Program-made: the position numbers and the translations under genes
The notes under the pieces: model-generated
Told to the model about the DNA's origin: nothing
The model's input: the letters and a program-made list of their open reading frames with translations, nothing else
Databases searched by the model: none
Shown here: piece after piece, positions 22,201 through 63,420 of the stretch
Layout: every line of letters starts with the position of its first letter
Numbering within the stretch: the stretch's first letter is position 1
Assembly (NCBI GenBank): GCA_018653085.1
Contig: JABIAY010000053.1
Span: 64,561 to 128,560, forward strand
DNA length: 64,000 nt
Source of the DNA: Nitrospina sp.
GTDB taxonomy: Bacteria > Nitrospinota > Nitrospinia > Nitrospinales > VA-1
Direction: 5' to 3'

Positions 22201-22461
22201 CAGGACAGTTACTTTTTCCTGAGAAATCTGGAGTGCGCCTTGCGGATCATTCGCCAGACCCCTACCAACACTCTTCCCAAAGACAATAAGGAGTTGGCAC
22301 CTTTGGCGCGGCTACTCGGATACGAAGGGGAGGACGCTGGAACCCTGGCGGGTTCCCTGCTCACCGATTATGACCGCCATACCCAACGGGTGCGAAAACA
22401 TTATCGCAAAACCATCGGCAATCTCCTCCGCTCCGGCCAAGCGGCCGGCGGCAACGTGTAA
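19285..22461 (+). CDS. glnE: Bifunctional glutamine synthetase adenylyltransferase / adenylyl-removing enzyme
   Basis: Two nucleotidyltransferase halves ([22 protein letters not shown] and [22 protein letters not shown]). ORF track starts at TTG 19261; ATG 19285 ([10 protein letters not shown]) is preferred. The last codons and the TAA stop lie inside a repeat unit. Confidence 0.9.
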   Translation: [1058 protein letters not shown]

Positions 22462-22545
22462 TAACTTTTTTAGCCGAGATGAGCTGTTGTTAGCAATAAA
22501 AAGTTATTGCAAGCTGGGTCCAGCGTCACGCTGGCGCCTAGCGGT
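22428..22545. repeat. Repeat locus R3 between convergent glnE and cimA
   Basis: Hairpin CCGGCC aagc GGCCGG (22433-22448) + GTGTAATAACTTTT, facing an inverted A unit TAGCCGAG..TTAGCAATAAAAAGTTATTGCA + CCAGCGTCACGCTGG (22520-22534) + CGCCTAG. Both flanking stop codons lie in the repeat. Confidence 0.85.
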
Positions 22546-24097
22546 TGAGTTTGTAGTCGATGCTGTCGATCAGGGCTTGCCAGCTGGCCTCGATGATATT
22601 TTCGGAGACGCCGACTGTGCCCCATTTGGAATGATGGTCGCCAGATTCCACCAGCACCCGTGTTTTGGCGCGGGTGCCTTTTTTTTCTTCCAGGATGCGT
22701 ACTTTGTAGTCGTAGAGGTTGACCTCTTCAAGTTCCGGGTAAAATTTAACCAGGGCCTTTTTGATGGCTTTGTCTAAAGCATTGACCGGGCCAGTCCCCT
22801 CGGCGGCGGAAACCTCCTGCACACCGTTGACTCTTAGTTTGACCGTGGCTTCGGAGATAGGTTCTTCGTCTTCCTGGCGTTTTTCAACGATGACGCGGAA
22901 TCCGATAAACTCGAAAAAGGTTTCTTTCTGCCCCAGTGCATCACGCATCATCAGTTCAAAAGAGGCCTCTGCACCTTCGTACTGAAAGCCCAGGTTTTCG
23001 GACTCTTTCAGCGACGTAAGAATTTTCTGGACCTTCGGATCCTTGTCGTCCACATTTAATCCATACTCCTTGGCCTTGTGCAGTACATTGCTTTTCCCGG
23101 AAAGATCGGAAACCAGAATGCGCTGGTGGTTGCCCACTTTTTCAGGCTGGACATGCTCATAGGTTTGAGCATTTTTTCGCACAGCACTGACATGTACACC
23201 GCCTTTATGGGCGAACGCACTTTTCCCTACAAACGGTTGTTGATTCCAATGTGCTTTATTGGCCAGCTCATCCACAAATGCAGAAACTTCTTTCAGGGAT
23301 TGCAGTTGTTCATCGGTGACGCAGTTGATCCCCATTTTGATTTTCAGGTTGGGGATGATGGAAACCAGATTCGCGTTACCACAGCGCTCGCCATAACCGT
23401 TGACAGTGCCCTGCACCTGCTCGGCTCCGGCCTGAACAGCATTGAGCGAGTTGGCAACGGCTACCTCTGAATCGTTATGGGCATGGATTCCCATTTTAAC
23501 GGAAACGGATTTTTTAACTTCTTCAAAGATTGCACGCACTTCATGCGGAAGCGACCCGCCATTGGTATCGCACAGGATGATCCAGTCAGCTCCCGCCGAT
23601 TCCGCTTCTTTGACAGCCTTGAGGGCGTATTGCGGATTATTCTTGTAGCCGTCGAAAAAATGTTCGGCATCAAAGAGAACCTCATCACGATGTTTTTTCA
23701 AATAGGCGACGCTCTCAAAGATCATGCGCAGATTTTCATCCAGACTGGTGGACAAGGCATCTTTCACGTGCAGGTCCCAGGATTTTCCGAAGAGAGTCAC
23801 TACCTGAGTTTCGGTTTTCAACAGAGCCTGCAAAACGGTATCGTCTTCCACTTTTTTGTCCGGATAGCGGGTACTGCCGAAGGCGGTGATCCGGGTTTGC
23901 GAAAAGTGGGCGCGCTGAGCCTTCTCAAAAAAATCGATATCTCTGGGATTTGATCCGGGCCAGCCTCCTTCAACATAATGCACTCCCAGTTCGTCCAGTT
24001 TGTGGGCGATGCGGATTTTATCCTCAACGGTGAAGGAGACACCTTCTGCCTGGGACCCGTCTCTGAGTGTGGTGTCGTATATTTTTACAGAGCTCAT
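22538..24097 (-). CDS. cimA: (R)-citramalate synthase (isopropylmalate synthase family)
   Basis: 519 aa. N-terminal [19 protein letters not shown]-barrel motif and a C-terminal LeuA-dimerisation-like domain. Length and sequence pattern match the CimA type rather than LeuA. Confidence 0.8.
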
Positions 24098-24112
24098 ATC
24101 TAAATAATTTTT

Positions 24113-25372
24113 TTATTGGTTTTTCTTTTTGTTTTTTTTCTTGGCGGGTTTGTCTGCAAGTTTAAAAGCAGTGTGCAAAGCGTTGGCCGCCAGTTTGGAA
24201 TGTTTTTGTTCAATGATGCAGGACACTTTGATCTCTGAGGTGCTGATCATTAATATGTTAACTTTATTGGCCGACAGGGTTTTGAAAATTTGCGCCGCCA
24301 CTCCTGAGTGACTGCGCATGCCTGCTCCGACAATGGAAATTTTAACGATTTTGGCATCGGCACTGACTTGGGTGGCATGGATTTTCTTTGCCACTTTATT
24401 CATGATGACCATGGCTTCATCGAGTTCTTCCCGCTGTAGCGTGAACGACATGTCAGTATGTCCCTGCTCGCTGACATTCTGAATGATCATATCAACGGAG
24501 ATGGCTGCCTTTGCCAAAGGTTCAAAAATATTGGCGGCAATACCCGGTTGATCGGGAACTTCCTTCAGGGTGATTTTTGCCTGGTTCTTGTCGCACATGA
24601 TTCCGGAAACTACCGGTTGTTCCATATTCGGATCCTCCTCGCAGATCAAAGTTCCCTTGTATCCTTCCTTGAAAGAAGATTTAACAATCAGGGGCATCTT
24701 ATATTTATGAGCAAACTCGACACAACGGATTTGCAGGACGTTGGCTCCCAGGCTGGCCATTTCCAGCATCTCATCATACGATACCACATCCAGCTTTCTG
24801 GCTTCCGGCACCATTCTCGGATCGGTGGTATAAACTCCATCAACATCGGTACAGATTTCGCATTGCCGGGCTCCCAGCGCAACTGCCAGGGCTACCGCTG
24901 AGGTGTCCGATCCGCCCCGTCCTAAAGTCGTTACATCGCCTTCCGGGTTGATGCCCTGGAATCCGGCGACCACGATCACATGATTTTCTTTCAGCATTTT
25001 GCGCGCCCGCTGGGCATCAATATTCATGATGCGGGCGCGGGTGTGAGTGCTGTCTGTTTGCAGGCCGATCTGCCTTCCCGTCATGGAAAGGGCGGGAATG
25101 CCACGGGCTTGCAGAGCGATGGTCAGCAGGGCGGCCGAAATGCGCTCGCCGGATGACAAGAGTAGATCGATTTCTCTGCGAGTCGGATTTTTAGCCAGGC
25201 TCCGTGCCATTTTCAATAGCTTATCGGTTTCCCCTCCCATGGCGGAAACCACGACTACGATATCAACACCGGTCTTTCGGGTTTTAACGATTTGGTCGGC
25301 AACCAGTTCGATTCGTTCCAGGGTTCCCACCGAGGTGCCGCCATATTTTTGTACAATCAAAGATTTGTTCAT
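24113..25372 (-). CDS. lysC: Aspartate kinase (monofunctional)
   Basis: 419 aa. VQKYGGTSV N-terminus, kinase domain, two C-terminal ACT domains, and a Lys-rich tail KKKNKKKNQ. Confidence 0.93.
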   Translation of the reverse strand: MNKSLIVQKYGGTSVGTLERIELVADQIVKTRKTGVDIVVVVSAMGGETDKLLKMARSLAKNPTRREIDLLLSSGERISAALLTIALQARGIPALSMTGRQIGLQTDSTHTRARIMNIDAQRARKMLKENHVIVVAGFQGINPEGDVTTLGRGGSDTSAVALAVALGARQCEICTDVDGVYTTDPRMVPEARKLDVVSYDEMLEMASLGANVLQIRCVEFAHKYKMPLIVKSSFKEGYKGTLICEEDPNMEQPVVSGIMCDKNQAKITLKEVPDQPGIAANIFEPLAKAAISVDMIIQNVSEQGHTDMSFTLQREELDEAMVIMNKVAKKIHATQVSADAKIVKISIVGAGMRSHSGVAAQIFKTLSANKVNILMISTSEIKVSCIIEQKHSKLAANALHTAFKLADKPAKKKNKKKNQ

Positions 25373-26562: not shown

Positions 26563-26657
26563 TTCTTTAGGGATAAAGGGATTGCGAACTTGCGTGTAAC
26601 CAAGGGTCAACAATTATAACTTAATTTTTCTATTTCCCCAACTTATTGAGAAACAAA

Positions 26658-26734
26658 CCACTAGACGCCGGGCACCGCCCGGAGGAAATGGACAATGACT
26701 CTAGCTGGCGAGCAACTGTGTTCTCGGCTTGCGA
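26658..26734 (+). repeat. Repeat locus R4 (A unit with variant hairpin)
   Basis: CCACTAGACG + CCGGGC acc GCCCGG (26668-26682) + ..CAATGACTCTAGCTGGCGAGCAACTGTGTTCTCGGCTTGCGA. Confidence 0.8.
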
Positions 26735-26992
26735 TATTCTTTCTTGCTATCTGCCTCCCCTGTTTTAAAAAGTTCGGCTGGCAAATATTGCAGGATCCGA
26801 CATTGATTTTTCGGTTTTTAAGGCCGGGGTGAAGTCGAGTTTTATTTTTAAAATCAGACTGTTATGGACGCAAAAAGGCTTTTATGATACTGTTTCACGA
26901 TGTGGGATAAGGCGACTTTGCCGATTTCCTAATGAAAAATTTTAGTTTTACTGAATGCTGGACCACCTGGTCGGGGAGAAGAAGGAGAGCTT

Positions 26993-27880: not shown

Positions 27881-27925
27881 TCTCTATATAAGCAGTAGTA
27901 AGAATTAACAGAGAAAGCCTCTAGT

Positions 27926-29170: not shown

Positions 29171-29222
29171 GGACGGCATTTCCAAACCCCTTGTCAGGGG
29201 AGAATAAGCCAAGGGCTTTTTC

Positions 29223-29286
29223 AGCCGAGACAACTTTTTGCTCGCCAGAGAAGGTTATTGCATACTGCCCCTCCGGCCAGGAGGGG
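29223..29286 (-). repeat. Repeat unit (inverted A unit) between the DUF898 and M48 genes
   Basis: The reverse complement reads CCCCTCC tggcc GGAGGGG CAGTATGCAATAACCTTCTCTGGCGAGCAAAAAGTTGTCTCGGCT. On the + strand its GGAGGGG arm contains the Shine-Dalgarno sequence of the M48 gene. Confidence 0.8.
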
Positions 29287-29291
29287 GTGCT

Positions 29292-32413: not shown

Positions 32414-32422
32414 GTGGAAAAA

Positions 32423-38718: not shown

Positions 38719-38786
38719 GCAACCCCCTCAATCCCCCTTATCAGGGGGACGATCAATTCCCCCCTGTTAAGGGGGCTAGGGGGGTT
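38719..38786. repeat. Family-2 G/C-run hairpin doublet (inverted pair)
   Basis: GCAACCCCCTCAATCCCCCTTATCAGGGGGA (38719-38749) faces TTCCCCCCTGTTAAGGGGGCTAGGGGGGTT (38757-38786). Single arms recur at 44342, 46455, 46641 and 53172. Confidence 0.85.
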
Positions 38787-44294: not shown

Positions 44295-44375
44295 CTTCTC
44301 TGGCTAGCAAACGATTACTCGGCTTAAAATGGGCTTGCTAAATTCCCCCCTGATAAGGGGGGCTAGGGGGGTTGC
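44258..44375 (+). repeat. Repeat locus R6 (A unit overlapping the shc 3' end, plus a family-2 hairpin)
   Basis: CCAGCGTGACGCTGG (44264-44278) ACTCAACGAGCAATAGCTTCTCTGGCTAGCAAACGATTACTCGGCTTAAAA, then ATTCCCCCCTGATAAGGGGGGCTAGGGGGGTTGC (44342-44375). Confidence 0.9.
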
Positions 44376-44409
44376 TTGTATGTGAACTCATCGAAGCATC
44401 TCGCCGAGC

Positions 44410-44982
44410 CTAATGCTGTCGAAGCATTTCTACTGCGAATTTGGTTCGGGTCAAATGTTCTGTGGCGGATGCGATCACTTCGCCGCTCATGACATCGGTC
44501 ATGGTGAGGTGAACATCAATATTAGTCCCAAGATCGGTGATACGACCTGTGATGATGGCCTGGGAGTTGAGTGCCTTGCCCATTAACCGGATCTCTTCCC
44601 TGTTGTATAGGTAAGAGGGTTTCAGGTTTAACTGCTCCAATACTGCGTTGACTTCTCCTTTTTGTGCTATCCGAAACGTCTTGTCCTGGAAAAAAAACTT
44701 TTTCGTAATCGCTTCCACGACTCTGGACGCAAAATACTCCCCAAGAATGGGAGCCCTGTTTTCTTCATCGACCAGGTCCATGACTGTGACCTTATTGATT
44801 TCATATTCTTCAACGTCTGCAGTCAGTTTTTGCACTAGCTCGGTAGATTTATCTTTGTAGTAACTGGAGTCCGTCTGAGTTCGGAACAATTTGCTCCAGA
44901 AGTTTGAAGGACCCAACTTCACTTCACAGCCGGAAACAAAGAGGGAAATCATGAGCAAATAAAGGAGTTTTCGCGTGTCCAT
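44410..44982 (-). CDS. Hypothetical lipoprotein
   Basis: 190 aa. Lipobox LFVSGC after a basic/hydrophobic N-terminus. The body pattern loosely recalls small periplasmic lipoproteins of the FlgO/CsgG/LpoB kind, but no motif is diagnostic. A perfect sigma-54 promoter lies upstream. Confidence 0.6.
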   Translation of the reverse strand: MDTRKLLYLLMISLFVSGCEVKLGPSNFWSKLFRTQTDSSYYKDKSTELVQKLTADVEEYEINKVTVMDLVDEENRAPILGEYFASRVVEAITKKFFFQDKTFRIAQKGEVNAVLEQLNLKPSYLYNREEIRLMGKALNSQAIITGRITDLGTNIDVHLTMTDVMSGEVIASATEHLTRTKFAVEMLRQH

Positions 44983-45046
44983 AGTTTATAAACCTTTGAT
45001 TTATTATCGTATTGTCGTCAGAAACCTGATCTCGCTTAAAGAGTAA

Positions 45047-45062
45047 TGCAAACTGGGTGCCA
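45047..45062 (-). promoter_or_regulatory. Sigma-54 promoter (consensus match) for the lipoprotein gene 44410-44982
   Basis: The minus strand reads TGGCACCCAGTTTGCA, i.e. TGGCAC-N5-TTGCA, which is exactly the -24/-12 consensus. The -12 element lies about 65 nt upstream of the ATG at 44982. Confidence 0.65.
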
Positions 45063-45218
45063 GACGCTAAAAATTTTGGCAGAGCCTGAGTCGGGTGGAA
45101 TAAACCCTTTAAATTAAACGGGTTATGTGTTGGAGGGGGAAGGCGGTGGGCTTCCTGACTGAGTCAATAAAAACGCCAACCTGGGGATATTTTGCCGATA
45201 TCCCCCCATTTTTTGACA

Positions 45219-45440
45219 CCCCCCCCACTCGGCGTGGGGCCAGCGTGTAATAACTTTTGCTGGCTAGCTACCGTTTCTCTCGGCTTAACGAGTGTTTGCT
45301 CACTGCCACCGGCGGCTCGCCGGCGCCGAGTGGCCCATTTCCGTGGGAGGGAACTGGGCAAGAGCTTGATTGTGCCGAGTTAACCTATTGTTCGCCGAAC
45401 CAAGCGACGGCACACTGGCCCCACGCCGAGTGGGGGGGGG
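45219..45440. mobile_element. Inverted-head repeat element (MITE/REPIN-like, 222 bp)
   Basis: Left end CCCCCCCCACTCGGCGTGGGGCCAGCGTG. The reverse complement of the right end is CCCCCCCCCACTCGGCGTGGGGCCAGTGTG (about 29 nt, one mismatch plus a C-run length difference). The interior is an A unit plus, inverted, a ~135-bp composite also present at 48945-49085. Confidence 0.7.
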
Positions 45441-45509
45441 TATTTTTCGGCAGGCGGGGGGAATTTGGTGTATAAACATAACTTCATTTAAAAATCCGTA
45501 AAGTTCGAG

Positions 45510-46367
45510 GTGACAGTTTTGAAGGCAATACAATGTTTGGGATGGATGGTTTTTTTGTTGGTCGGGCCTCTGGTTTCAGGTTGTAACGGCGGTGATGGGG
45601 AAGATGTTGTCGAAAAGTCTTCCTTCCAGATGCCGGTAAAAGAAAATACCTGGGTGCGTAAGGAAACTGTGCGTAAAACCAAAGATGACTTCTTTGCCTC
45701 TGCCGGTAAAAAGAGCGTTGAAGTTCCCATCGACTCTGCTCTGGCGGAAAAATTGAAAAAGGCCTCTTCCCTTTCCATCAACACGCAACAAGAATGCTTG
45801 CAACAGGCCACCGCCCTCGATAAAAAACGGACTGAAGTGCAGAAGCGTGGAGGACTCTGGCATGCCTATGAGCGGGTGCCGACAGCCAAACCTTATTCGG
45901 ACTATGGTATGCAACTCGACAGCCAGACCAACCGACTGGTGTTTTCCCTCAAGTATCTTTGCCAGAATGCCCAGGGACTCCAGTTAACCGGGTGGGGTGC
46001 GGAGATGGCGCGAATGCGTAAAAATATGGGTAAAGAAAATTTCAGAACTCATTTTCTGGATTTAGGTGAGGTACCGGCTGATGTGGATAACTGGGTGCGT
46101 TTCGCCGAATTTGCTATTCAAGGTGAGAACCGCAAAATCCCTTATTCCAAAATCAGTGAGTCCCTTGGCAAAGCCCAATCTCTTATGGGTCTTTATGATG
46201 ACCTGTCGCAAAGAAAAGTAGATGATGCTACTTTGCAAACTTTCCTCGCAGAAGGGGCCACACTCCTGAGTGTTATCAACGAGAGTTTTAAGTCCGACCC
46301 GCAACTGATCCTCGCCCTGCAAGATGAAAATATACTTCCCTTTGAGGACATCAAAGGCGAAATGTAG
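45510..46367 (+). CDS. Hypothetical lipoprotein
   Basis: 285 aa. Lipobox LVSGC, no recognisable domain. GTG start at 45510 is uncertain. The TAG stop is the TAG of a truncated repeat head. Confidence 0.55.
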   Translation: MTVLKAIQCLGWMVFLLVGPLVSGCNGGDGEDVVEKSSFQMPVKENTWVRKETVRKTKDDFFASAGKKSVEVPIDSALAEKLKKASSLSINTQQECLQQATALDKKRTEVQKRGGLWHAYERVPTAKPYSDYGMQLDSQTNRLVFSLKYLCQNAQGLQLTGWGAEMARMRKNMGKENFRTHFLDLGEVPADVDNWVRFAEFAIQGENRKIPYSKISESLGKAQSLMGLYDDLSQRKVDDATLQTFLAEGATLLSVINESFKSDPQLILALQDENILPFEDIKGEM

Positions 46368-46748
46368 CGGCCAGTGTGCAATGACGTTGATAGGCTGACA
46401 ATAAGTTATCTCGGCTCAATTGAGCCCTCAAGCGCAACCGCCGAAAAGTAAAATATTCCCCCCTGATAAGGGGGGCTAGGGGGTAGTTTTGCTCCCTCTT
46501 GATCTTCCCCTTGTGGTAAATCACCCCAGCCCTCTTTGAGAAAGAGGGGGTTTTAAACCCCCTAGATCCTTAGCCCTCTTTGAGAAAGAGGGGGTTTTAA
46601 ACCCCCTAGATCCTTCGGCAGGCTCAGGATGACAGCTAAAGCAACCCCCTCAATCCCCCTTATAAGTGGGAAGCTCAATCGTTATAGTATTGCGCTTGAT
46701 GGTACTGCTTGCTTGACGGGCAATGCAGTACTGGCCCTACGCCTAGTA
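46365..46748. repeat. Composite repeat element R8 (heads facing out; families 2 and 3 inside)
   Basis: TAGCGGCCAGTGTGCAATGAC..CTCGGCTC..TCAAGCGCAA, then family 2 (46455-46484), family 3 with a tandem duplication, inverted family 2 (46641-46670), and an inverted B unit ending ..GGCCCTACGCCTAGTAG (46748). The block order matches 53085-53520. Confidence 0.85.
46528..46615 (+). repeat. Perfect tandem duplication, 2 x 44 bp
   Basis: AGCCCTCTTTGAGAAAGAGGGGGTTTTAAACCCCCTAGATCCTT at 46528-46571, repeated exactly at 46572-46615. Each copy holds two hairpins (CCCTCTTT/AAAGAGGG and GGGGG/CCCCC). Confidence 0.95.
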
Positions 46749-46891
46749 GAAAAGACGATCATCCCTCAGTGAGTTAAAAATTGTTGGAGAAGAACCAATT
46801 TTTAACTCATGTATCTGAAGAAGATCGTCTTTTTGTTTTTTTATATTATTTGATGAAACCCCCGGAGCAAAGCTCCGAGGAGTTCATTCGA

Positions 46892-48226
46892 TTAAATAAT
46901 ATAACCGCGCTCACCATGCTCCGCGAGATCCAGGCCTTCGGCTTCCGCGTCTTCTTCAACGCGCAGACCCATAATCCCATCGAGTACTTTCAGGATGATG
47001 AAGCTGACAACGCCGGTATAGATCATGGTTGCGCCGACGCCGGTAAACTGTACTGCTACCTGACCGCCGATGCTGGTGATGTCGCCGCCGAAACCAGCGC
47101 CGCCCAGACTTTCGGCGCAGAACACACCGGTTAAGATTGCGCCGATGATACCGCCCACGGCGTGGATGCCGAATACATCGAGAGAATCGTCATAGCCCAA
47201 GGCGCGTTTGATTACTGTGGATGCGAAGAAACAGCCGAAGCCGGACGCAAACCCAATCGCCATGGCACCCATGGGGCCAACAGCACCTGATGCCGGGGTG
47301 ATGGCTACCAAACCTGCCACTGCACCGGAAGCAATTCCCAATACGCTGGGCTTGCCGTGTTTTACCCATTCGATGGACATCCAGGCCAAAGCCGCCGCCG
47401 CAGTGGCAATCTGAGTTACAGCCATAGCCATTCCGGCAACTCCATCTGCCGCCAGTTCACTACCGGCGTTGAATCCGAACCAGCCAACCCAGAGCATGGA
47501 AGCACCCATCAGGGTGTAACCAAGGTTATGCGGTGGCATAGCTGTAGTCGGGTATCCTTTGCGTTTGCCAAGGCAGATTGCCGCTACCAGACCCGCCATG
47601 CCGGCGTTGATGTGAACAACTGTGCCGCCGGCGAAATCCAGTATTCCTTTGCTACCGAGCCAGCCGCCGCCGCCCCAAACCCAATGACAGACCGGGGCAT
47701 ACACGATCGTTACCCAGATTGTCATGAAGACCATCATGGTTGAAAATTTCATGCGCTCAGCAAAAGCTCCGACCATCAGGGCCGGGGTGATGATGGCAAA
47801 TGTCATCTGGAATGTCATGAATACGGTTTCCGGGATGGTGCCGCTCAGTGTGTCAACGCCTACTCCCGCGAGAAACATCTTACTCAATCCTCCCCAGTAT
47901 GGACCATCGCCGCCGAACGCGATGCTATAGCCGTAGACGGTCCACAGTATGGTCATGAGTGATGTGATGGCGAAACACTGCATGAGCACCGACAAGACAT
48001 TTTTACTTCGCACCATACCGGCGTAGAACAATGCCAGACCGGGGATGGTCATGAACAGCACCAAAGCGGTGGCCGTCAGCATCCAGGCAGTATCTCCCGA
48101 ACTCAGAGTGGGTGCCTCTTCGGCCATAGCCAGAGACGGTAACAGGGTAAACAGCAAAAACAGGAGGGCTATCATTGCCCAGGACTTCTTTGATGTAGGC
48201 CAGTGGCCTGGAATCTTGATCTTCAT
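46892..48226 (-). CDS. amt: Ammonium transporter Amt
   Basis: About 444 aa from MKIKIPGHW (ATG 48226, GGAG upstream). Signal peptide ending SLAMAEEA, 11 TM pattern, conserved FAGGTVVHINAG and GVHAVGG-type motifs. Downstream of glnK. Confidence 0.92.
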   Translation of the reverse strand: MKIKIPGHWPTSKKSWAMIALLFLLFTLLPSLAMAEEAPTLSSGDTAWMLTATALVLFMTIPGLALFYAGMVRSKNVLSVLMQCFAITSLMTILWTVYGYSIAFGGDGPYWGGLSKMFLAGVGVDTLSGTIPETVFMTFQMTFAIITPALMVGAFAERMKFSTMMVFMTIWVTIVYAPVCHWVWGGGGWLGSKGILDFAGGTVVHINAGMAGLVAAICLGKRKGYPTTAMPPHNLGYTLMGASMLWVGWFGFNAGSELAADGVAGMAMAVTQIATAAAALAWMSIEWVKHGKPSVLGIASGAVAGLVAITPASGAVGPMGAMAIGFASGFGCFFASTVIKRALGYDDSLDVFGIHAVGGIIGAILTGVFCAESLGGAGFGGDITSIGGQVAVQFTGVGATMIYTGVVSFIILKVLDGIMGLRVEEDAEAEGLDLAEHGERGYII

Positions 48227-48337
48227 GAAACTCAACTCCCGATAAAGGTTGAACAGCGAAATCATGCTGGAATATGTTTTTAATAAACACCCAGGTTTTT
48301 GATGGGACTGATGGGTCCCGTTGTCTCGGGCCAGTGA

Positions 48338-48745
<408 letters not shown>

Positions 48746-48770
48746 TTACCCTCCAACAACCTTATCTATT

Positions 48771-48785
48771 TCAACAATTGTGCCA
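48771..48785 (-). promoter_or_regulatory. Candidate sigma-54 promoter upstream of glnK-amt
   Basis: The minus strand reads TGGCACAATTGTTGA, about 95 nt upstream of the glnK ATG. Same TGGCAY-N5-TTGA form as at glnB and nirB. Confidence 0.45.
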
Positions 48786-48904
48786 ACTTGAAGCCTTTCG
48801 GCTGGCATTCAGATTATCTGTTTATTTTCAAATACTTGGAGGAGGGATGCTAAATTTTGTCCAACTGAAAAACCTTGTTGAGCAAGATTTCTGCCTAAAT
48901 TTTG

Positions 48905-48921
48905 AGCACCAAAACGGTGGG
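48905..48921. promoter_or_regulatory. NtrC-type enhancer-like palindrome upstream of the glnK promoter
   Basis: GCACCAAAACGGTGG (48906-48920) resembles the GCACC-N5-GGTGC core of enterobacterial NtrC sites. It lies about 125 nt upstream of the -24 element. Confidence 0.3.
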
Positions 48922-48944
48922 TATGCTTTGCCACGAAGCACCGG

Positions 48945-49243
48945 CCCACTAGGCGTGGGGCCAGCGTGCCGTCGCTTTATTTGGCGAGCAGAGAGTTTGT
49001 CTCGGCGCAATCAAGCTCTTGCCCAGTTGCCCCTGCGGCTAGCAGCCACTAGGCGCCGGCGAGCCGCCGGTGGCTACTGCAATGGCGTTTACTAATTAGC
49101 AACAGTTTATCTCGGCACGATTAAATCCTCGCCCACTGAGTCCAGCGTGACGCTGGTGCCCAGTCGCAACCCCTGCCAAGGGGCACTAGGCGTGGGATTA
49201 GCGGAAGCGGGGTTATTGCTCACTGAGTCCAGCGTCACGCTGG
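48945..49243. repeat. Repeat locus R9 (four head/hairpin units in tandem and inverted order)
   Basis: CCCACTAGGCGTGGGGCCAGCGTG..GGCGAGCA..CTCGGCGC (48945-), CCACTAGGCG CCGGCG agc CGCCGG..TGCAATGGC..CTCGGCAC (49046-), CCCACTGAGT CCAGCGTGACGCTGG (49142-49156), and an inverted unit CACTAGGCGTGGG..TTATTGCTCACTGAGT CCAGCGTCACGCTGG (49229-49243) that overlaps the nirC 3' end. Confidence 0.9.
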
Positions 49244-50040
49244 TCTTGCAAGGTGGCTCCTGCTTCCATGCGCAAGCTGGGGGTGGCCAGCCAATACACG
49301 AGGCCCACAAAAGCACCGCCGCCGACCAGGTTTCCAAGGGTGACAAAGATCTGGTTATGGATGAACCCGGCTATCGAAACTTCTGCTCCATGCGGCAGAA
49401 GCATTGCCATGCTCAACAAACTTTGGTTGGCGATGCTATGCTCGAATCCGCTACCGATGAAAGCAAACAGGCACCAGAAAATCATAATCAGTTTGGCGGT
49501 TTCGCTTTTTGTCCGTAAAGAAATCCACACCGCCAGGCAAACCAGCCAATTGCAGAGTATTCCCCGCAGAAAAGCTTCTTTCGCGCCAAGTCCCATTTTC
49601 CCCGCCGCGACTTTGAGTATCAAAGCTTGCGAGGCTTCGGTCAAACTGCCGCCTTCGACCACCATCCAACCGAGAAACGCCGAGCCAATGAAATTACCGA
49701 CGAAGCACATAACGAACAACATGACAATTGAGCCCACACCCACTCGGTTAGCCAACCGGCTAACGGCAAAAATCATATTGTTGCCGGTAAACAGTTCTGA
49801 TCCGGCAAAGATGACCAGGCTCAGGGCAATACCGAAAGAGGCACCCATGATCAGTTTCAAATAGGCTCCGCCACCTGCGCTTGCGATGGGGCCGCCAATC
49901 GAAAAAATCAGGACGATGCCAAATCCCAGATAGATTCCGGCTAACGCGGACAGGATGAGATAGCCCAGAGGAGACTTTTTCATGTACTCGATCTTCTTTT
50001 CAGAAGCATCGGCTATCTTTTGCATTTCGCTTTTAAACAT
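49213..50040 (-). CDS. nirC: Formate/nitrite transporter family channel (NirC/FocA-like)
   Basis: 275 aa FNT-family pattern with six TM segments, immediately downstream of nirD. The C-terminal QRDAGLSEQ* is repeat-encoded. Confidence 0.85.
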   Translation of the reverse strand: MFKSEMQKIADASEKKIEYMKKSPLGYLILSALAGIYLGFGIVLIFSIGGPIASAGGGAYLKLIMGASFGIALSLVIFAGSELFTGNNMIFAVSRLANRVGVGSIVMLFVMCFVGNFIGSAFLGWMVVEGGSLTEASQALILKVAAGKMGLGAKEAFLRGILCNWLVCLAVWISLRTKSETAKLIMIFWCLFAFIGSGFEHSIANQSLLSMAMLLPHGAEVSIAGFIHNQIFVTLGNLVGGGAFVGLVYWLATPSLRMEAGATLQDQRDAGLSEQ

Positions 50041-53084: not shown

Positions 53085-53582
53085 CTCCTAGGCGCTACTA
53101 GCCGTAGGGGCACAACTAGCAATAGCTTTCTTTGGCGGGCAGGGAGGTGTCCCGGCTTGAGGAGGTTCTACTATTCCCCCCTGATAAGGGGGACTAGGGG
53201 GGGTGCATTATTTGTGGTTACAGCCCTCTGGGTTGCCACGCCGCCTTCGGCGGCTCGCAATGACGGGCAAAGCAAACCCCTGAATGTAAATCACCCCGGC
53301 CCTCTTTAATAAAGAGGGGGCAAGCCAACCCTCCCCAACCCCTCAGACTATCGGGCTTGAGTCCCTATGAAGGGAGGGGATATAACAAACCACGCCACAC
53401 ATTGTTTTGTCGGGAAGAAATATTAAAGTGTTGCGCTTGAGTGTTTAGTCCGCTTTACGGGCAATGCAGTACTGGCCCCACGCCGAGTGGGCCGAGCTAA
53501 CCTGTTGTTGGCTGATTGATGCTATGCAGTTGGCGGTCGCGTAAGCGTCTCCGCCCCATTGCCTCCCACGCTAGTGGGCTAG
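53085..53582. repeat. Composite repeat element R10 (about 500 bp, largest mosaic)
   Basis: CTCCTAGGCG..AGCAATAGC..CCCGGCTT; family 2 (53172-53205); hairpin GCCGC cttcg GCGGC + TCGCAATGAC (53240-); family 3 (53286-53320); inverted B unit ..TTGCGCTTGA..GGGCAATGCAGTACTGGCCCCACGCCGAGTGGG; and an inverted A-like unit ending CCCACGCTAGTGGGCTAG, which contains the lon stop codon. Confidence 0.88.
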
Positions 53583-55987: not shown

Positions 55988-55990
55988 ATA

Positions 55991-57238: not shown

Positions 57239-57285
57239 AAAGCCCTCTTCAGAAGGGTTGGAATTGAGTGTTCACTCAATTCAAA

Positions 57286-57918: not shown

Positions 57919-58043
57919 GATTCTCTCTAGATTAGAAATGGGGCAAGAAAAAAACTTCTTTCTGAATCCGGCTCTGGTTCCGAAAGCGTTTTTGGCCTGT
58001 AAGTCATTAAAAAATAATTAGATATCTTTGTAATGGTTGAGTT

Positions 58044-59393
58044 TTAATTATCAGCAATTAAATCTTTTCTGTCAACTTTTTCTTCTTTGATGGTCACCTT
58101 TTCCAGTGCGGCATCAAGGGTTTTGTCGCGTTTCATGCGATTGTGCAGTCGGGCCAGGATGCCGTTTTTTTCCCATTCCCGTTTAATTTGTTGCAGATTG
58201 CCTCCGCCCAGTAACTGGGACATGTTCTTGACCTCCTGTTCCAATTCTTCTTCGGTGACTTCCGCTTTCAGGTCCCGTGCCAATTGGTCGAGAACCAGTT
58301 CTTCCTGCAGGGCTTTCATGGCCGGTTCGCGATACTGCGTGAGCAGTTCGGGAGTCACCTCGACACCATGGTCGTGATCATGGTCATGATCATGGCCTTG
58401 ATGTTGGTGATCTTCCTTAGCTTCCTTTTTTCTGGCCTGCTCGGCCATGAACTTGACCTGGTCTTTCAAAAGTCCTTCCGGAATATCCAGCTGATTCTGC
58501 TCGGTGATTTTTTCCGCTAATTCCTTTTTCACTGCTTTCTTGGCTTCCTTGTGCTCAAAGTCTTCCAGCTCAGAGCGGACGCGCTGTTTCATATCATCCA
58601 GGCTGGCATAATCTTTGTCCTCCACATTGCGGGCAAACTCATCGTCCAGCTCCGGCAGTTTTTGCTCCTGAATGCCTTTCAGCACAATTTGGAAATCCAC
58701 ATCTTTTCCGGCGATTTCCTTGTTGTGGTAATCTTCGGGAACCTGTACCTGAATGTCCCGGGTTTCGCCGATTTCCATGCCGATCATGCCCTTGTCCAGT
58801 CCTTCAATCAATTGTCCTCCCCCTGCCTGGATGATCTGGTCTTGCGCAGACCCGCCTTCAAAGGGTTGGTCGCCGAGCTTGCTGGTAAAATCTATTTTGA
58901 GTAAATCCTTATCCTGGGAAGGGCGACCGGTCACCTGGACATTCTCCGCCTTACGCTGGCGCAATGCTTCAATGGTCTGATCGACTTCTTCATCGGTGAC
59001 ACGCGGGGTTGTTATTTTCAGTTCAATACCAGAGTAGTCTTGCAGTTCTACAGTTGGGAGTACCTCGACCGATGCGGAAACAGAGATATCCGTTCCTTCT
59101 TCGGCATTGACCTCCAAAAGATGGGGCTGGCCCACCGCTCTCAGGTCTTTTTCTACAATGGCGTTATTGAGTTCTTCGCTGATCAGGTTGCTCAGGACTT
59201 CTTTTTTAACATCCGGTCCAAACTGTTTTTCCAGCAGGGCGATGGGTACTTTTCCCTTGCGGAATCCGGGAACTTTGACCTCTCGCCCGAGCTTCTGATA
59301 ATACGCTTTTACTTTTTTGTCGTATTCCTGATGAGGAATTTCGAACTTGATTTTTTTGTTACAGGAATCAACGTCTTCGATGTCTATTTTCAT
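58044..59393 (-). CDS. tig: Trigger factor
   Basis: 449 aa. N-terminal ribosome-binding GFRKGKVP motif, central PPIase-like domain, C-terminal arm domain carrying an unusual DHQHQGHDHDHDHDHG insertion. Confidence 0.93.
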   Translation of the reverse strand: MKIDIEDVDSCNKKIKFEIPHQEYDKKVKAYYQKLGREVKVPGFRKGKVPIALLEKQFGPDVKKEVLSNLISEELNNAIVEKDLRAVGQPHLLEVNAEEGTDISVSASVEVLPTVELQDYSGIELKITTPRVTDEEVDQTIEALRQRKAENVQVTGRPSQDKDLLKIDFTSKLGDQPFEGGSAQDQIIQAGGGQLIEGLDKGMIGMEIGETRDIQVQVPEDYHNKEIAGKDVDFQIVLKGIQEQKLPELDDEFARNVEDKDYASLDDMKQRVRSELEDFEHKEAKKAVKKELAEKITEQNQLDIPEGLLKDQVKFMAEQARKKEAKEDHQHQGHDHDHDHDHGVEVTPELLTQYREPAMKALQEELVLDQLARDLKAEVTEEELEQEVKNMSQLLGGGNLQQIKREWEKNGILARLHNRMKRDKTLDAALEKVTIKEEKVDRKDLIADN

Positions 59394-59418
59394 AACTTTC
59401 CAAATGTTTAAAGATTGG

Positions 59419-59585
59419 CGGCCAGCGTGGTGCTGGGCCCAATTAGCCCTTGCTGTTTGCTACTCCCGTTGCGGAGAACCTCCGCTGGTAACTTGCAATA
59501 TCTTTATTTTGCGGGCAATCGGTCTCTCGGCCCAATCAGCCCTTGCTGTTTGCTACTCCCGTAAGGGAGGTTTTCCCCCTCCACG
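59419..59585. repeat. Repeat locus R11 between tig and tRNA-Leu
   Basis: CCAGC gtggt GCTGG (59422-59436) followed by a 34-nt direct repeat GGCCCAATYAGCCCTTGCTGTTTGCTACTCCCGT at 59436-59469 and 59529-59562 (one mismatch). These are degenerate A units. Confidence 0.8.
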
Positions 59586-59590
59586 GGTAG

Positions 59591-59675
59591 TGGTGCGGAT
59601 GAGAGGACTTGAACCTCCACTCCGTAAGGAACATGATCCTAAATCATGCGCGTCTGCCAATTCCGCCACATCCGC
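59591..59675 (-). tRNA. tRNA-Leu (anticodon TAG)
   Basis: The minus strand reads GCGGATGTGGCGGAATTGGCAGACGCGCATGATTTAGGATCATGTTCCTTACGGAGTGGAGGTTCAAGTCCTCTCATCCGCACCA. It has a 7-bp acceptor stem, anticodon loop TTTAGGA, a long variable arm, T-loop GGTTCAAGTCC and an encoded CCA. Confidence 0.92.
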
Positions 59676-59809
59676 ATTATATTTCAAGGGTTTATACGAT
59701 AGTTTCTGACCCTGGTTCTTTGGCTGTTTCAAAGGGGTATGAGCCTGCAGACAACCTGTCTAGTCAATATATCATTTAATAGAAAAGGATTCCGCAAATA
59801 TCTGGCCTC

Positions 59810-60325: not shown

Positions 60326-61122
60326 TATTTTCGTATGGACCGGGGTTTGCGATCTTTCGGGACGAGCAGGGTTCCGGCAGGGTAGTAGCCTTTGGGGATG
60401 GTCAGGCCGGGGTAGACCCAGACATCTTTTCCGATCAGCGTACCGGGGCAGACGATGGCATTACAACCCAGTTCAACATTATCGCCGATTACCGCACCCA
60501 GTTTTTCCATTCCGGTATCCAGAACTTCGGAGTCGAGAGGGATATGGATAGGGTTGATATAGCCCTTACGTTTTTCATCGGCACTTCTCAGTTGCAGGTT
60601 TGCCAGCTTCGACCCTGCTCCCAGGTTGACATGGCTCCCTATAATGCTGTCACCGATATAATTGAAATGGCCCGCTTCGGTATGATCCATGAGAATGCTG
60701 TTTTTCAATTCGGTGGCATGGCCGATCACGCTGTGGTTTCCGATCAGGGCGTTCCCGCGGATATAGGCTCCCTGCCGGATATCGCAGTCCTCTCCAATCA
60801 TGGCAGGACCCTTTATTATGGCCGAAGGCTCCAATTGCGTTCCTTTGCCAATGAAGATATCCAGTTCCTTCAAGTAAATCGGTTCTGCCAGATCGACCCA
60901 GTCCTCGACGTAAAATCCCTGTTCGCCTCGGTGGTAACTGGCGGAATCCAGAGTGGTCCTTATCCCGGCCAAATGGGAGGCATAAGACCCGCCAGAGACT
61001 TTTTTGCGTATCAACTGCTTCACCCGGGATTCCAGTGTTTTTAACGGGTCCCATACGTGTTCACAATCGGCAAAAATATCCGGTTCGCTCAGGTCTGAAA
61101 AAAATAGATTTAAATCTTTCAT
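60325..61122 (-). CDS. Hexapeptide-repeat (left-handed beta-helix) protein resembling the GlmU acetyltransferase domain, with no nucleotidyltransferase domain
   Basis: About 265 aa from MKDLNLFF (ATG 61122, GGAGG 8 nt upstream). ATELKNSILMDHTEAGHFNYIGDSIIGSHVNLGAGSKLAN parallels the GlmU C-terminal pattern (E.K.S..G.GSKA.HL.YIGD..IG..VNIGAGT). The ORF-track extension to 61164 is repeat sequence. Confidence 0.65.
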   Translation of the reverse strand: MKDLNLFFSDLSEPDIFADCEHVWDPLKTLESRVKQLIRKKVSGGSYASHLAGIRTTLDSASYHRGEQGFYVEDWVDLAEPIYLKELDIFIGKGTQLEPSAIIKGPAMIGEDCDIRQGAYIRGNALIGNHSVIGHATELKNSILMDHTEAGHFNYIGDSIIGSHVNLGAGSKLANLQLRSADEKRKGYINPIHIPLDSEVLDTGMEKLGAVIGDNVELGCNAIVCPGTLIGKDVWVYPGLTIPKGYYPAGTLLVPKDRKPRSIRK

Positions 61123-61126
61123 ACGG

Positions 61127-61244
61127 AGTACCTCCGCCGGCGAACCGCCGGTGGCAGATAGCAAAGACCCGTCAAGCCGAGGGGACTCTTTGCTCGCCAG
61201 CGAACGCTATTGCCAGTTGGGTCCAGCGTCACGCTGGCGGTTAG
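61127..61244 (-). repeat. Repeat locus R12 (inverted A unit plus CCGGCG hairpin)
   Basis: The reverse complement reads CTAACCG CCAGCGTGACGCTGG ACCCAACTGGCAATAGCGTTCGCTGGCGAGCAAAGAGTCCCCTCGGCTTGAC ... CCACCGGCGGTTCGCCGGCGG. It contains the TAA stop of the mutase gene and abuts the SD of the next gene. Confidence 0.88.
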
Positions 61245-63289
61245 TGGTTGATGTACCATTTGCCGAGAGGGGTCAGGCTGTTTCCCTCGCGACTCAATTG
61301 AATAAGGTTCTGCTTTTTCATTTCGTTAATCAGCCTGGATTTGTACTGGTTTTTTATTTCCAGCTCTTCATCGGTGACTGGCCTCGCAGCGATTTGGCTG
61401 AGAGCATCCAGTTCTACTTTATAAAAAGAGTTGTCACGGTCTTTGAGCAGAGAGGTCAAAAGTTTAATAGCCTCCAGCCCGATTTTTTTCAGTTTCCCGG
61501 CGTCCGATTTTCTTCCACGCAGGTTAACGCTGATTTTGTTTTCGGTGCCGGAATTTCTTACAAAGATACCGGCTTCCCCCCCTGATAGGGAAATATACAA
61601 CATATCCGGGTCGTCAGGGAAGTTTCGCGTTCGGGTGGAGTACCCGCTTTGCTTCGCGGTTTGAAATAGTAGCCGCTTAACTTTTTTCCATACTTGAGAA
61701 TCCCGGCAGAATAGTTCCTGGCGAATATAATACGTGTAAAGAGTGGATTTGAATCCGGGTAAAAAGGGCTGGCGAACAGACTGGATATACCTTTTAGGCG
61801 ACAGGGTTGCGGCCAGATGCTCGGTGGCGGCAAAGGTATTGAGAGCACTTTTTAATCCATTGCCGGAGTATATTTGTACTTCTTTTTTGTCGGGCAGAGT
61901 TAAATAGCCGGTGGTGATGTTGTGCCCCGTTTCCTCACTGCCTACCGCCAGAACATGGGAATTATTTTTTGTTGCGGCCGGATTCTCTAGAATAGATGCT
62001 TCGAGATTTTTAAGGTCCGCCACTCGTGTCACGCCTTTTTTTTGTAGCGATGCGATTTTATTTTTAAGTTTTTTCTGCGTTGTGAGCATCGATAGTTTTT
62101 GTTGCAACAGCGCGAGGCGGATTTTAAGCAGGATCCATTTATCACCAACAGCTGTGAGCAGAGGGGTCAGCCCCATTAACTCGGCAGAGGCAGAGGCGTT
62201 GAGGTCGCTTTCCACAGTATTGATATAAAGCGATCCGCCGTATTTTTGGGGAAAGCGGGATACCAAATGTCGTGCCTGCAGGATGGCTGTCTCGTCTCCG
62301 CTTAAGACCCACAGGGTATCTTGAAACGGATCGTATTCCAGGCGGAAGAAACGATCGCCATCGGCATCGAAAATGGCTCCGGCAATTCTTTTTTTTCCGC
62401 ACTCTGCGGATTTCTGGTTTGCCCGGCCCAACTGAAAAAGTTTGACGATGGCTTTGTGGAAGCGGAAAGGTCCGGCGGGTTGCAGGATCATGTCTGCGGT
62501 GATGCGGGGGCACCCTTCCAGGTCAGCGACTCCAGAGCGCAGGTTTACCGCGCCATTTTTTCCTGCGTTGACTTCGACTACTTTGCCGACTCCGGCGTCC
62601 TTAAAAATTTGCGCGGCGATTCCTGTGAACGCCCCGAAAGCGGGGTCAACAACCAGAATGAGGGCTTTTAAAGTGTCGGGAGAATTGATCCAGGAGTTTT
62701 CAGGCCGCAGGGAAAAATGCTGAAACAGTGCCAACGCTTTTTGTCGGCAATCGGTTCTTCCTCCTTTCAGGGGAAGTTTTTTAATGGCGTTTTGTTTGAG
62801 CAGGCTTTGGGTCAGGTCGATATCGTCAGAAGGTAACGGCTTCATGCCATGAAAAGGCAGGAAAAGTTTTATTCCGTTTTGATCCTTAGGGTTGTGGGAT
62901 GCGGTGACCATGATGCCACCATCGTCGCCATTATGTAGCATAAATAGCGGCACCAGGGGAGTCGGCACTACACCCAGAACCCTGGCCTCACCCCCCGCTT
63001 TGCGGACACCCCGAACTACCGCTTCCGTAAAGGTGCCGGAAGGATCTCTGGGGTCCCAGCCGATGACGAAGGTTCTTTTTTTGTGTGCGGACGATTGATT
63101 TTTGACGTAGCAATAGACGTAAAGCTCCATAAACTCTTCGGTGATCCAGCCCTTTGCAAGAAAAACTTGTAGTGGAGTCGACCCTCTGCATTCTGAGTCT
63201 TTTGCCGATCTGATTTCCCGGCGAATCCCATCGGTACCCTGCAAGCGGTCGGGCACAATGGGTTGCATTGGGATCGTTTTAGGTTTCAT
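61241..63289 (-). CDS. Alpha-D-phosphohexomutase superfamily protein (GlmM/AGM1-like) with insertions and a C-terminal extension
   Basis: 682 aa. Phosphoserine loop GIMVTASHNPKDQNGIKL, metal loop FDADGDRF, sugar loop GSEETGHN, phosphate loop RNSGTENKISV. An extra ~90 aa tail follows domain IV. Confidence 0.8.
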   Translation of the reverse strand: MKPKTIPMQPIVPDRLQGTDGIRREIRSAKDSECRGSTPLQVFLAKGWITEEFMELYVYCYVKNQSSAHKKRTFVIGWDPRDPSGTFTEAVVRGVRKAGGEARVLGVVPTPLVPLFMLHNGDDGGIMVTASHNPKDQNGIKLFLPFHGMKPLPSDDIDLTQSLLKQNAIKKLPLKGGRTDCRQKALALFQHFSLRPENSWINSPDTLKALILVVDPAFGAFTGIAAQIFKDAGVGKVVEVNAGKNGAVNLRSGVADLEGCPRITADMILQPAGPFRFHKAIVKLFQLGRANQKSAECGKKRIAGAIFDADGDRFFRLEYDPFQDTLWVLSGDETAILQARHLVSRFPQKYGGSLYINTVESDLNASASAELMGLTPLLTAVGDKWILLKIRLALLQQKLSMLTTQKKLKNKIASLQKKGVTRVADLKNLEASILENPAATKNNSHVLAVGSEETGHNITTGYLTLPDKKEVQIYSGNGLKSALNTFAATEHLAATLSPKRYIQSVRQPFLPGFKSTLYTYYIRQELFCRDSQVWKKVKRLLFQTAKQSGYSTRTRNFPDDPDMLYISLSGGEAGIFVRNSGTENKISVNLRGRKSDAGKLKKIGLEAIKLLTSLLKDRDNSFYKVELDALSQIAARPVTDEELEIKNQYKSRLINEMKKQNLIQLSREGNSLTPLGKWYINH

Positions 63290-63360
63290 GTGAAACTGGG
63301 TGCTCGAAAGGGTGAGTGGGTTTCAAAGGTTTTTTCGTAGCCGACAGATTGTAACATAGG

Positions 63361-63420
63361 GGCCACCGGTGAGCCACCGCCAGCATGATGCTGGACCCAA
63401 CTGGCAATGGTTTGTTGGGT
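63361..63420 (+). repeat. Repeat locus R13 (A unit with compensated hairpin)
   Basis: GGCCACCGGTGAGCCACCG CCAGCATGATGCTGG (63380-63394) ACCCAACTGGCAATGGTTTGTTGGGTTGAG. The stem differs from CCAGCGT/ACGCTGG by a paired G:C to A:T change. Confidence 0.8.

Follow-up and report, generated by a model that had tools for sequence, protein, structure and literature searches.

Repetitive extragenic palindromic (REP) sequences occur in sub-families with complementary alternative stem residues, a textbook property of these repeats (PMC3333891, PMC3733652). The latter source also describes head-to-head REP dimers 20-100 bp apart, a preference for convergent or unidirectional gene pairs, and a tag, a conserved unpaired tetranucleotide (GTAG or CGTC) that stands at the foot of the hairpin on one side. 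The bacterial interspersed mosaic element BIME-1 is built from a REP, a conserved linker and an inverted REP, and the cleavage site of Escherichia coli TnpA_REP is C|T, with GCC|TAC in the tag complement among the sites cut (PMC3333891). Here we describe a family of hairpin-ended repeats in a 64-kb stretch of Nitrospina DNA (hereafter the window) and in other genomes of the phylum Nitrospinota. Nitrospina-type bacteria are major nitrite oxidisers of the sea and have small genomes. The hairpins are probably the terminal modules of modular, non-autonomous repeats that resemble REP doublets, of the BIME-1 or REPIN (REP doublet forming a hairpin) type, and that spread as DNA with single-strand hairpin ends beside a C|TAG-type site. 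The family is previously undescribed; its novelty extends to its tag and to the phylum that hosts it, whereas elements of this kind are already known. Literature searches found no paper describing such repeats in Nitrospina or Nitrospinota, and Nitrospinota are not named in the abstract and two sections of PMC3733652.

An earlier note on this DNA, made from the sequence alone, had placed 13 hairpins immediately upstream of a conserved core GCAATRRC. Direct reading of the sequence finds all 13, including the paired G:C to A:T variant at 63380 (CCAGCA-TGA-TGCTGG, still palindromic). GCAATRRC alone proved a poor anchor: the 8-mer has 17 matches in the window where 9.3 are expected (2 of 100 shuffles give at least as many), and about half of these are chance occurrences within genes. 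Its 8 nt do, however, open a conserved core of ~54 nt with the consensus GCAATAGCTTTTnCTGGCGAGCAAAGAGTTATCTCGGCTTAAnAAGCCCTTGC, of which an nhmmer profile detects 14 copies in the window (E <= 5e-4). When the core pattern was run against one genome per species, it matched ~50 loci from at least 12 Nitrospinota assemblies; all other matches were singletons in unrelated, mostly G+C-rich genomes, as chance would give. The set of Nitrospinota loci compared with the window carries L-numbers (L025, L110, L114 and so on), and together with the window it supplied the 104 core copies analysed, 103 of them distinct. The load differs strongly by lineage, with 14 cores per 64 kb in the window and 0 per 41 kb in L111-L114, and across Nitrospinaceae it ranges from 0 to over 200 elements per Mb. 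All units are intergenic or lie at the 3' ends of genes.

A unit is ~100-120 nt long and consists of an outer end, a hairpin, a spacer and the core, followed by the mirror image of spacer, hairpin and end. The outer end often reads CCA-CTAG-GCG, with the tag variants CTCG, CTGG and CTAA. The terminal hairpin is short and G+C-rich, usually with a stem of 4-7 bp and a loop of 3-5 nt (13-19 nt overall), and the spacer to the core comprises 8-9 nt of the form RGGCAAnTn, GGCCARnnn or ACCCAAnnn. Read outward from the core, both sides show one order; along the strand this gives the hairpin, RGGCAAnTn and GCAAT on one side and an ATTGC-like sequence, nAnTTGCCY and the hairpin on the other; the unit ends are therefore inverted, and the hairpin module stands on both sides of the core and not merely upstream of it. 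These ends form imperfect inverted repeats of ~17 nt plus the hairpin. In L114 an orthologous site lacks the unit, and the comparison puts the outer boundary of the unit at CCACTAG(G/A)CG (boundary sequence ...CTAGTGG|). CTAG is rare in the window, and 27 of its 43 sites (63%) fall within the 7.7% of the sequence that holds repeats, where they typically lie 0-3 nt outside the foot of a hairpin or in its loop.

The position of the hairpin is fixed. In the window, a perfect, G+C-containing hairpin of at least 4 bp stands 5-11 nt from the core at 23 of 28 core ends. Among the 104 copies, 46% of ends have a perfect stem of at least 5 bp beside the core, compared with 11% of shuffled flanks, and 31% have one of at least 6 bp, compared with 2.6%. 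The hairpin foot lies 7-10 nt from the core start (mode 9 on one side, 8 on the other), and in a fixed register 24 of the 102 left ends have a perfect 6-bp hairpin with a 3-nt loop at spacer 9, whereas practically none has one at another offset. The spacing of 2-16 nt given in the earlier note thus narrows to 5-11 nt, and 11 of its 13 hairpins stand at that distance (mode 8-9) from a full or truncated core. The other two are without a recognisable core: that at 13945 looks like a usual gene-end hairpin with TTT behind it, 5 nt downstream of where the open reading frame (ORF) 12974-13939 stops, and that at 53240 lies 2 nt from a chance GCAATGAC.

The hairpins themselves are diverse, with 86 distinct ones on 130 ends in the window and loci, and several types recur. 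One is CCAGCG-TGA-CGCTGG; the CCAGCGTGACGCTGG hairpin is found on 14 ends in 7 genomes, and CCAGCGTSACGCTGG occurs exactly at 22520, 44264, 49142, 49229 and 61223 of the window. Still-palindromic variants of the latter with two mismatches lie at 63380 (CCAGCATGATGCTGG) and 59422 (CCAGCGTGGTGCTGG), and the sequence with its variants gives 8 matches against 0.06 expected. A second type is CCGGNN-NNN-NNCCGG, with CG, GC, CC/GG or TC/GA as inner pairs; without its outermost pair it appears as CGGAC-AAC-GTCCG. Hairpins of the type CCAC-TNGGC-GTGG have the relatives CTGC..GCAG and CTCC..GGAG, and several copies carry CCAC-TAGGC-GTGG, a form missing from the earlier list. The remaining recurrent hairpins are CCCTC-TAGC-GAGGG, CCCCT-TAGC-AGGGG, GCGGAG-AAC-CTCCGC and CCCCCC-TGATAA-GGGGGG.

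Stem covariation was examined in a structure-blind MAFFT alignment of 101 left ends, over a helix of 6 bp. In this helix 88.4% of cells are paired, compared with 70.8% after shuffling of partners, and none of 500 shuffles reaches 88.4%, although this control is not a probability and overstates independence, the copies being kin. In slid registers only 25-49% of cells are paired, and this comparison, together with the number of independent stem sequences, is a stronger argument than the shuffles. All six stem pairs have changed on both sides, with double changes in 47 cells against 13.5 expected; G-U pairs are tolerated, and the CCAC/GTGG helix gives a weaker signal in the same direction. The covariation of the 6-bp stem is significant, and pairing at the fixed position exceeds the level of both the column shuffles and the slid registers. 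Furthermore, in one orthologous copy, found at the same site in five species, the stems are invariant and the loops vary.

These results support constraint on pairing at a fixed position while the stem sequence varies, so that the interpretation in the earlier note is supported in part. The compensatory part of that claim needs qualification: a large share of the variation comes from the trading of hairpin modules that recur in a limited set and not from stepwise compensatory mutation of one hairpin, and whole modules have been inserted, deleted or replaced at orthologous sites. The phenomenon is much more general than the earlier note could see. Compensating stems are known as a hallmark of REP-type repeats. 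The ends probably have to fold as single strands, which would be why pairing is kept.

The units of the window are the following.

14826-14924, plus strand: hairpin CCAC-TAGGC-GTGG (14826-14838), core 14848-14901, hairpin CCCAC-GGGA-GTGGG (14911-14924); the stop TAG of the flanking gene (14823-14825) abuts the unit end.
22433-22545, minus strand: between the convergent glnE and cimA; tag CGCTAGGCG, hairpin CCAGCGTGACGCTGG (22520-22534), core 22457-22510, other hairpin CCGGCC-AAGC-GGCCGG (22433-22448).
26659-26744, plus strand: between divergent genes; end CCACTAGACG, hairpin CCGGGC-ACC-GCCCGG (26668-26682), core 26692-26744; outer boundary set by the empty site in L114.
29187-29286, minus strand: fills the gap between a DUF898 gene and an M48 peptidase gene; hairpin CCCCTCC-TGGCC-GGAGGGG (29268-29286), core 29208-29261, hairpin CCCCT-TGTC-AGGGG (29187-29200).
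44264-44366, plus strand: at the 3' end of shc; hairpin CCAGCGTGACGCTGG (44264-44278), translated; core 44288-44339; other hairpin CCCCCC-TGATAA-GGGGGG (44345-44362), then CTAG.
45219-45439, two inverted units: cores 45247-45300 (plus strand) and 45357-45411 (minus strand); outer ends CCCCAC-TCGGC-GTGGGG at 45223-45239 and 45419-45435; inner hairpins CCGGCG-GCT-CGCCGG (45309-45323) and CCCA-TTTCCG-TGGG (45334-45347).
46368-46432, plus strand: core 46378-46432; shortened end TAG-CGGCCAGTGT, without hairpin.
48945-49243, a cluster between nirC and the P-II gene: unit 1 with core 48968-49023 (plus strand) and hairpins at 48945-48959 and 49033-49045; unit 2 with core 49079-49133 (plus strand) and hairpins CCGGCGAGCCGCCGG (49056-49070) and CCAGCGTGACGCTGG (49142-49156); a truncated unit made of the hairpin 49229-49243 and GTTATTGC.
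53088-53197, plus strand: tag CTAGGCG, hairpin CTAC-TAGCC-GTAG (53095-53107), core 53119-53172, other hairpin CCCC(CC)-TGATAA-GGGG (53175-53193), then CTAG.
59422-59569, plus strand, beside tRNA-Leu: hairpin CCAGC-GTGGT-GCTGG (59422-59436) running into a core truncated on its 5' side, followed by a complete unit with hairpin GCGGAG-AAC-CTCCGC (59471-59485), core 59495-59547 and hairpin CTCCC-GTAA-GGGAG (59556-59569).
61137-61241, minus strand: fills the gap between two co-directional genes and abuts the GGAGG/ATG of the next gene; end CCACTAACCG, hairpin CCAGCGTGACGCTGG (61223-61237), core 61160-61213, hairpin CCGGCG-AAC-CGCCGG (61137-61151).
63380-63456, minus strand, diverged: core 63403-63456, hairpin CCAGCA-TGA-TGCTGG (63380-63394).

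At 61120-61137, the GGAGG Shine-Dalgarno sequence and the ATG of the gene that follows the unit at 61137-61241 are located within or immediately behind another hairpin, CGGAG-GTA-CTCCG, which overlaps the unit end. The window holds other repeats as well. The repeat ATTCCCCCCTGATAAGGGGGGCTAGGGGG, a hairpin followed directly by CTAG, is present at 38756-38784, 44342-44370, 46455-46483 and 53173-53201, and in two of these places it acts as the terminal hairpin of a core unit. A 44-nt unit, AGCCCTCTTTGAGAAAGAGGGGGTTTTAAACCCCCTAGATCCTT, with two hairpins and one CTAG inside, forms an exact tandem duplication at 46528-46615 and recurs at 15022-15060 and 53285-53320, with related copies in other Nitrospinaceae loci. 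A second repeat family, ..TATTGCGCTTGAG..GGGCAATGCAGTACTGGCCCCACGCCTAG, occupies 14925-14990 (plus strand, that of the 14848 unit), 46682-46750 and 53423-53488; it has another interior and the end module of the core family, CCACTAGGCGTGGGGCCAG, so end modules are common to different families.

The window is a housekeeping chromosomal stretch with a G+C content of ~48%. Its host is a Nitrospina-type bacterium: positions 59065-59420 are 92% identical to OZ253496.1, the chromosome of a Nitrospinales metagenome-assembled genome, and the region of the P-II gene is 99.8-99.9% identical to marine metagenome contigs and to the assemblies GCA_018650065.1 and GCA_018647925.1. The resident genes referred to in the text are listed below.

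19261-22461: glnE.
22538-24097: cimA, citramalate synthase.
42312-44294: shc, squalene-hopene cyclase.
48338-48676: P-II nitrogen-regulator gene (Pfam P-II), a neighbour of amtB.
49213-50040: nirC/focA.
59591-59675: tRNA-Leu.

An inverted repeat of 349 nt with 78% complementarity connects 17215-17563 with 48340-48688; the latter arm coincides with the P-II gene, and the former is presumably a paralogous P-II gene.

Orthologous sites display extensive turnover of the units. At the 3' end of cimA, the window and L110 (97% CimA identity) both have a unit, that of L110 with another small repeat inserted into the CCAGCGTGA|CGCTGG hairpin. L114 (93% CimA identity) has a core-less hairpin-AGCAAATTGCTAGTTT-hairpin arrangement at this site, and in L112 and L113 (73-75% CimA identity) the cimA 3' end is without a unit. 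In other species pairs, orthologous intergenic sites differ in the presence or absence of a unit, in the inversion of the core between conserved outer ends, in the swap of one terminal hairpin for another and in the number of tandem units. Units also stand in tandem arrays, of 3.2 x 96 nt and of 3.1 x 98 nt.

The units lie mostly 3' of genes and in gaps inside operons, with 37 in co-directional, 21 in convergent and 7 in divergent context, a preference for unidirectional and convergent gene pairs like that of REPs. Between co-directional genes the core is in sense orientation in 14 cases and antisense in 23. An ORF of at least 100 codons ends in or just before the unit at 43 of 104 left ends and 31 of 104 right ends, and cimA, glnE, shc and nirC obtain stop codons and short C-terminal tails from the elements. 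The stop of cimA is the TAG of the end motif CGCTAGGCG, and CimA is shortened relative to that of L114. On the opposite side of the same unit, glnE is read through the hairpin CCGGCCAAGCGGCCGG (22433-22448), so that GlnE ends in ...SGQAAGGNV, with the stop TAA in GTAATAAC. The shc stop is the TAG of GCAATAGC (core 44288-44339) and that of nirC the TAA of the truncated unit, GTTATTGC. As a result of translation through the CCAGCGTGACGCTGG hairpin to the TAG or TAA of GCAATAR, the unrelated Shc (44254-44294) and NirC/FocA (49213-49253) end in one element-encoded tail, QRDAGL(N/S)EQ*. Likewise, a gene for a 682-aa mutase-like protein stops at the TAA of the end CCACTAACCG, and an upstream lipoprotein gene at the TAG of the shortened end at 46368-46432.

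The repeats resemble in several respects the REP and BIME-1 elements of E. coli, for which TnpA_REP, a REP-associated tyrosine transposase (RAYT), is the mobilising or processing enzyme. Short, inverted, G+C-rich hairpins in many, mainly extragenic copies surround a conserved linker, here the 54-nt core and its spacers; stem positions vary yet stay complementary, the alternative residues defining sub-families; and TAGGC is found at the hairpin foot in both (GTAGGCCGG... compared with CTAGGCGCCGG...). As in E. coli, copies lie behind genes and inside operons and their tandem number varies from strain to strain (PMC3333891). The Nitrospina end reads CGCC TAG where TnpA_REP cuts GCC|TAC, a resemblance and not a test. 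The Nitrospina tag differs in starting with C instead of G and in having GCG between tag and stem; the hairpins are perfect and 13-19 nt long, compared with 30-40 nt, and the linker is longer, at ~71 nt. As for the site for integration host factor (IHF) in the BIME-1 linker, the consensus WATCAANNNNTTR is present in 7 of 103 units only. These belong to one core sub-family, which matches the IHF consensus perfectly (AATCAAGCTCTTG) around position 40 of the core (0.17 units expected) and includes the window cores 48974-49023 and 45357-45411 and copies in L056, L065 and L019; a general IHF site in the core was therefore rejected. Cyanobacterial HIP1, GCGATCGC, was considered as well and has 0 copies.

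With the GTAG and CGTC super-families the Nitrospina repeats share stems of 6-13 bp with loops of 2-3 nt, alternative complementary residues, head-to-head dimers at 20-100 bp, unpaired nucleotides between tag and stem in some families and the presence of some copies in genes; the tag CTAG/CTCG/CTGG fits neither consensus (for the super-families, PMC3733652). With Pseudomonas REPINs, which RAYTs replicate, they share the arrangement of two inverted hairpin units and a spacer as one repeated unit in many copies per genome, and vertical inheritance with long-lived copies, exemplified here by the copy orthologous in five species. In a REPIN, however, both REPs are copies of one sequence and the whole element is one long hairpin, whereas the two ends of the Nitrospina unit are usually different hairpins, so that it is not a strict REPIN; a strong whole-unit fold is seen in some copies only, and the core, at the place of the spacer, is the best-conserved part. 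Correia elements of Neisseria have sequence-conserved terminal inverted repeats (TIRs) of 26 bp and a TA duplication. The Nitrospina units are similar to these and other TIR-type miniature inverted-repeat transposable elements (MITEs) in being ~100-150 nt long, inverted at the ends, intergenic and co-transcribed, in having a sub-family with a central IHF-like site and in altering the ends of neighbouring genes; in contrast to Correia elements, their ends are conserved in structure and variable in sequence, and no duplication is seen at two boundaries. The 3' ends of Helitron and IS91-type elements carry a sequence-variable G+C-rich hairpin a few nucleotides from a terminal CTAG-type motif and are read by HUH enzymes. 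The likeness lies in this hairpin and motif; Helitrons and IS91 have different 5' and 3' ends and are kilobases long, and no Rep/helicase gene is seen with the Nitrospina units.

Several observations weigh against the assignment to REP-like repeats spreading as DNA. The tag (CTAG, CTCG or CTGG, then GCG) is neither GTAG nor CGTC, and CTNG(GCG) is recognisable on only ~45% of hairpin-bearing ends. Within one unit the two hairpins usually differ in type (for example, CCAGCG... and CCGGCG... at 61137-61237), which sets it apart from a REPIN, and the bias of strand relative to local GC skew, 52:42, is not significant. REP-RAYT systems have a single-copy RAYT gene (Y1 HUH) with its cognate REPs on both flanks. 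The window contains no transposase of any kind, and tblastn with E. coli RayT gave no match at E < 2 in 470 kb of Nitrospinaceae DNA. No target-site signature was established, seven contigs of one species at 99.8-99.9% identity show no repeat insertions or deletions, and the kinship of the copies takes some weight from the shuffle control. Considering (i) the mismatched tag, (ii) the unlike ends, (iii) the rarity of IHF sites and (iv) the absence of a RAYT from the 470 kb, we therefore file the repeats as a REP/BIME-like family and do not name the enzyme. Presence and absence at orthologous sites, hairpin swaps, tandem arrays, the uneven lineage load, the five-species copy and the lack of recent indels together indicate that the family is old and has moved or recombined in the past, with no visible activity at present. 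We infer that the units spread as DNA, now or formerly.

Candidate mobilising enzymes were also sought among individual ORFs. The repeat-flanked ORFs 45510-46367 and 44410-44982 are not transposases; they encode lipoproteins with a signal peptide and Cys and have no transposase domains. L025 356-1700 (OZ253496.1) contains an ORF for an IS110-family transposase (633-1583; Pfam DEDD_Tnp_IS110 and Transposase_20) directly after a core copy broken off at GCAATATCTTTATCT; this site is orthologous to window 59420-59550, where the core is intact. IS110 elements target REP sequences. Targeting of the core cannot be demonstrated here because the far junction is rearranged, and IS110 was rejected as mobiliser.

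Three other explanations have to be set against that of REP-like repeats spread as DNA, although none of them excludes it. The units could be classical MITEs, deletion derivatives of an insertion sequence with a DDE transposase that move by cut-and-paste through imperfect TIRs, the hairpins being mere palindromes inside these TIRs. The inverted ends, the size of ~110 nt, the intergenic location, the variable presence among relatives and the end module CCACTAGGCGTGGGGCCAG shared by several different interiors all agree with this view. We nevertheless consider it unlikely: a DDE enzyme reads duplex DNA and gives no reason for stem covariation, the hairpins at the two ends of a unit usually differ, no target-site duplication is seen at the two definable boundaries (clean filled/empty pairs are few), and no longer element with matching ends and a transposase was found, a search for an autonomous element bounded by the end module giving only coincidental pairs. 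Alternatively, the hairpins may all owe their form to sequence mechanics, without structural selection, if template switching in quasi-palindromes and gene conversion regenerate the palindromes and produce the apparently compensatory changes in one step. Quasi-palindrome correction is an established mutational process, the stems are mostly perfect and not merely stable, modules are exchanged between copies at one site and identical modules recur across genomes. Such regeneration leaves unexplained why hairpins on either side keep a fixed distance from the core, why the spacer and the CTAG at the foot are conserved, and why loops vary around invariant stems in the orthologous copy; as a full account we regard it as highly improbable.

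The third explanation is that the hairpins are RNA elements kept by local selection because they stabilise 3' ends, offer sites for processing by RNases or terminate transcription in a non-canonical way; they would then be no mobile DNA modules, and the repeats would be only their vehicle. Enrichment behind genes and between co-directional or convergent genes, units that fill whole operon gaps (61125-61240 and the L031 set), the invariant stems of the five-species copy and the tolerated G-U pairs point this way, as does the folding of some whole units; 61120-61245 folds far better than its shuffles (z -3.8 and -4.4), whereas others have z near 0. No consensus structure of the core was obtained with RNAalifold on either strand, only tRNA-Leu reaches the gathering score of Rfam in the window, and a relaxed Rfam search of 44200-49300 gave one chance match (E 0.74). 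Intrinsic termination, one of the roles suggested in the earlier note, was rejected: the family hairpins lack a T/U tract, the spacers reading GGCAA or ACCCAA, and none was called as a terminator, the window having 30 terminator-like sites against 26.5 expected. Moreover, the load is very different between close lineages, seven units lie between divergent genes, and the hairpins are translated through in shc, nirC and glnE. As the primary explanation an RNA role is thus quite improbable in our judgement, while the other two roles named earlier, RNA stabilisation or processing and recognition of single-stranded DNA hairpins by HUH/RAYT enzymes, may each apply.

Returning to REP-like spread as DNA, we propose the following mechanism. 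The ends would fold as single-stranded hairpins beside the conserved C|TAG-type site and would be recognised by an enzyme that reads structure, most plausibly a RAYT-like nuclease of the HUH/Y1 class. Such an enzyme would leave the stem sequence free while fixing pairing and position. Units that became fixed between genes would be co-transcribed, and their hairpins may protect or process mRNA 3' ends, which could account for the long retention of some copies. A bolder version, which we hold tentatively and with more doubt than belief, sees the units as ancient, vertically inherited hairpin-ended replicators with CTAG as a third tag beside GTAG and CGTC. Their hairpins would be interchangeable cassettes recognised by shape, their enzyme a divergent RAYT or another HUH protein, and the rewriting of stop codons and last residues of housekeeping genes would be routine.

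The repeat family occupies about 1.5-2.5% of the 64-kb window. It can serve as a marker in strain typing and can reveal problems of assembly in metagenome bins, and it flags gene ends with element-derived stop codons and C-terminal tails. Its hairpins, a series of equal shape and different sequence, are useful for testing recognition by a structure-reading nuclease or an RNA decay enzyme. With this family, REP/BIME-type biology extends beyond the phyla from which it is chiefly known.

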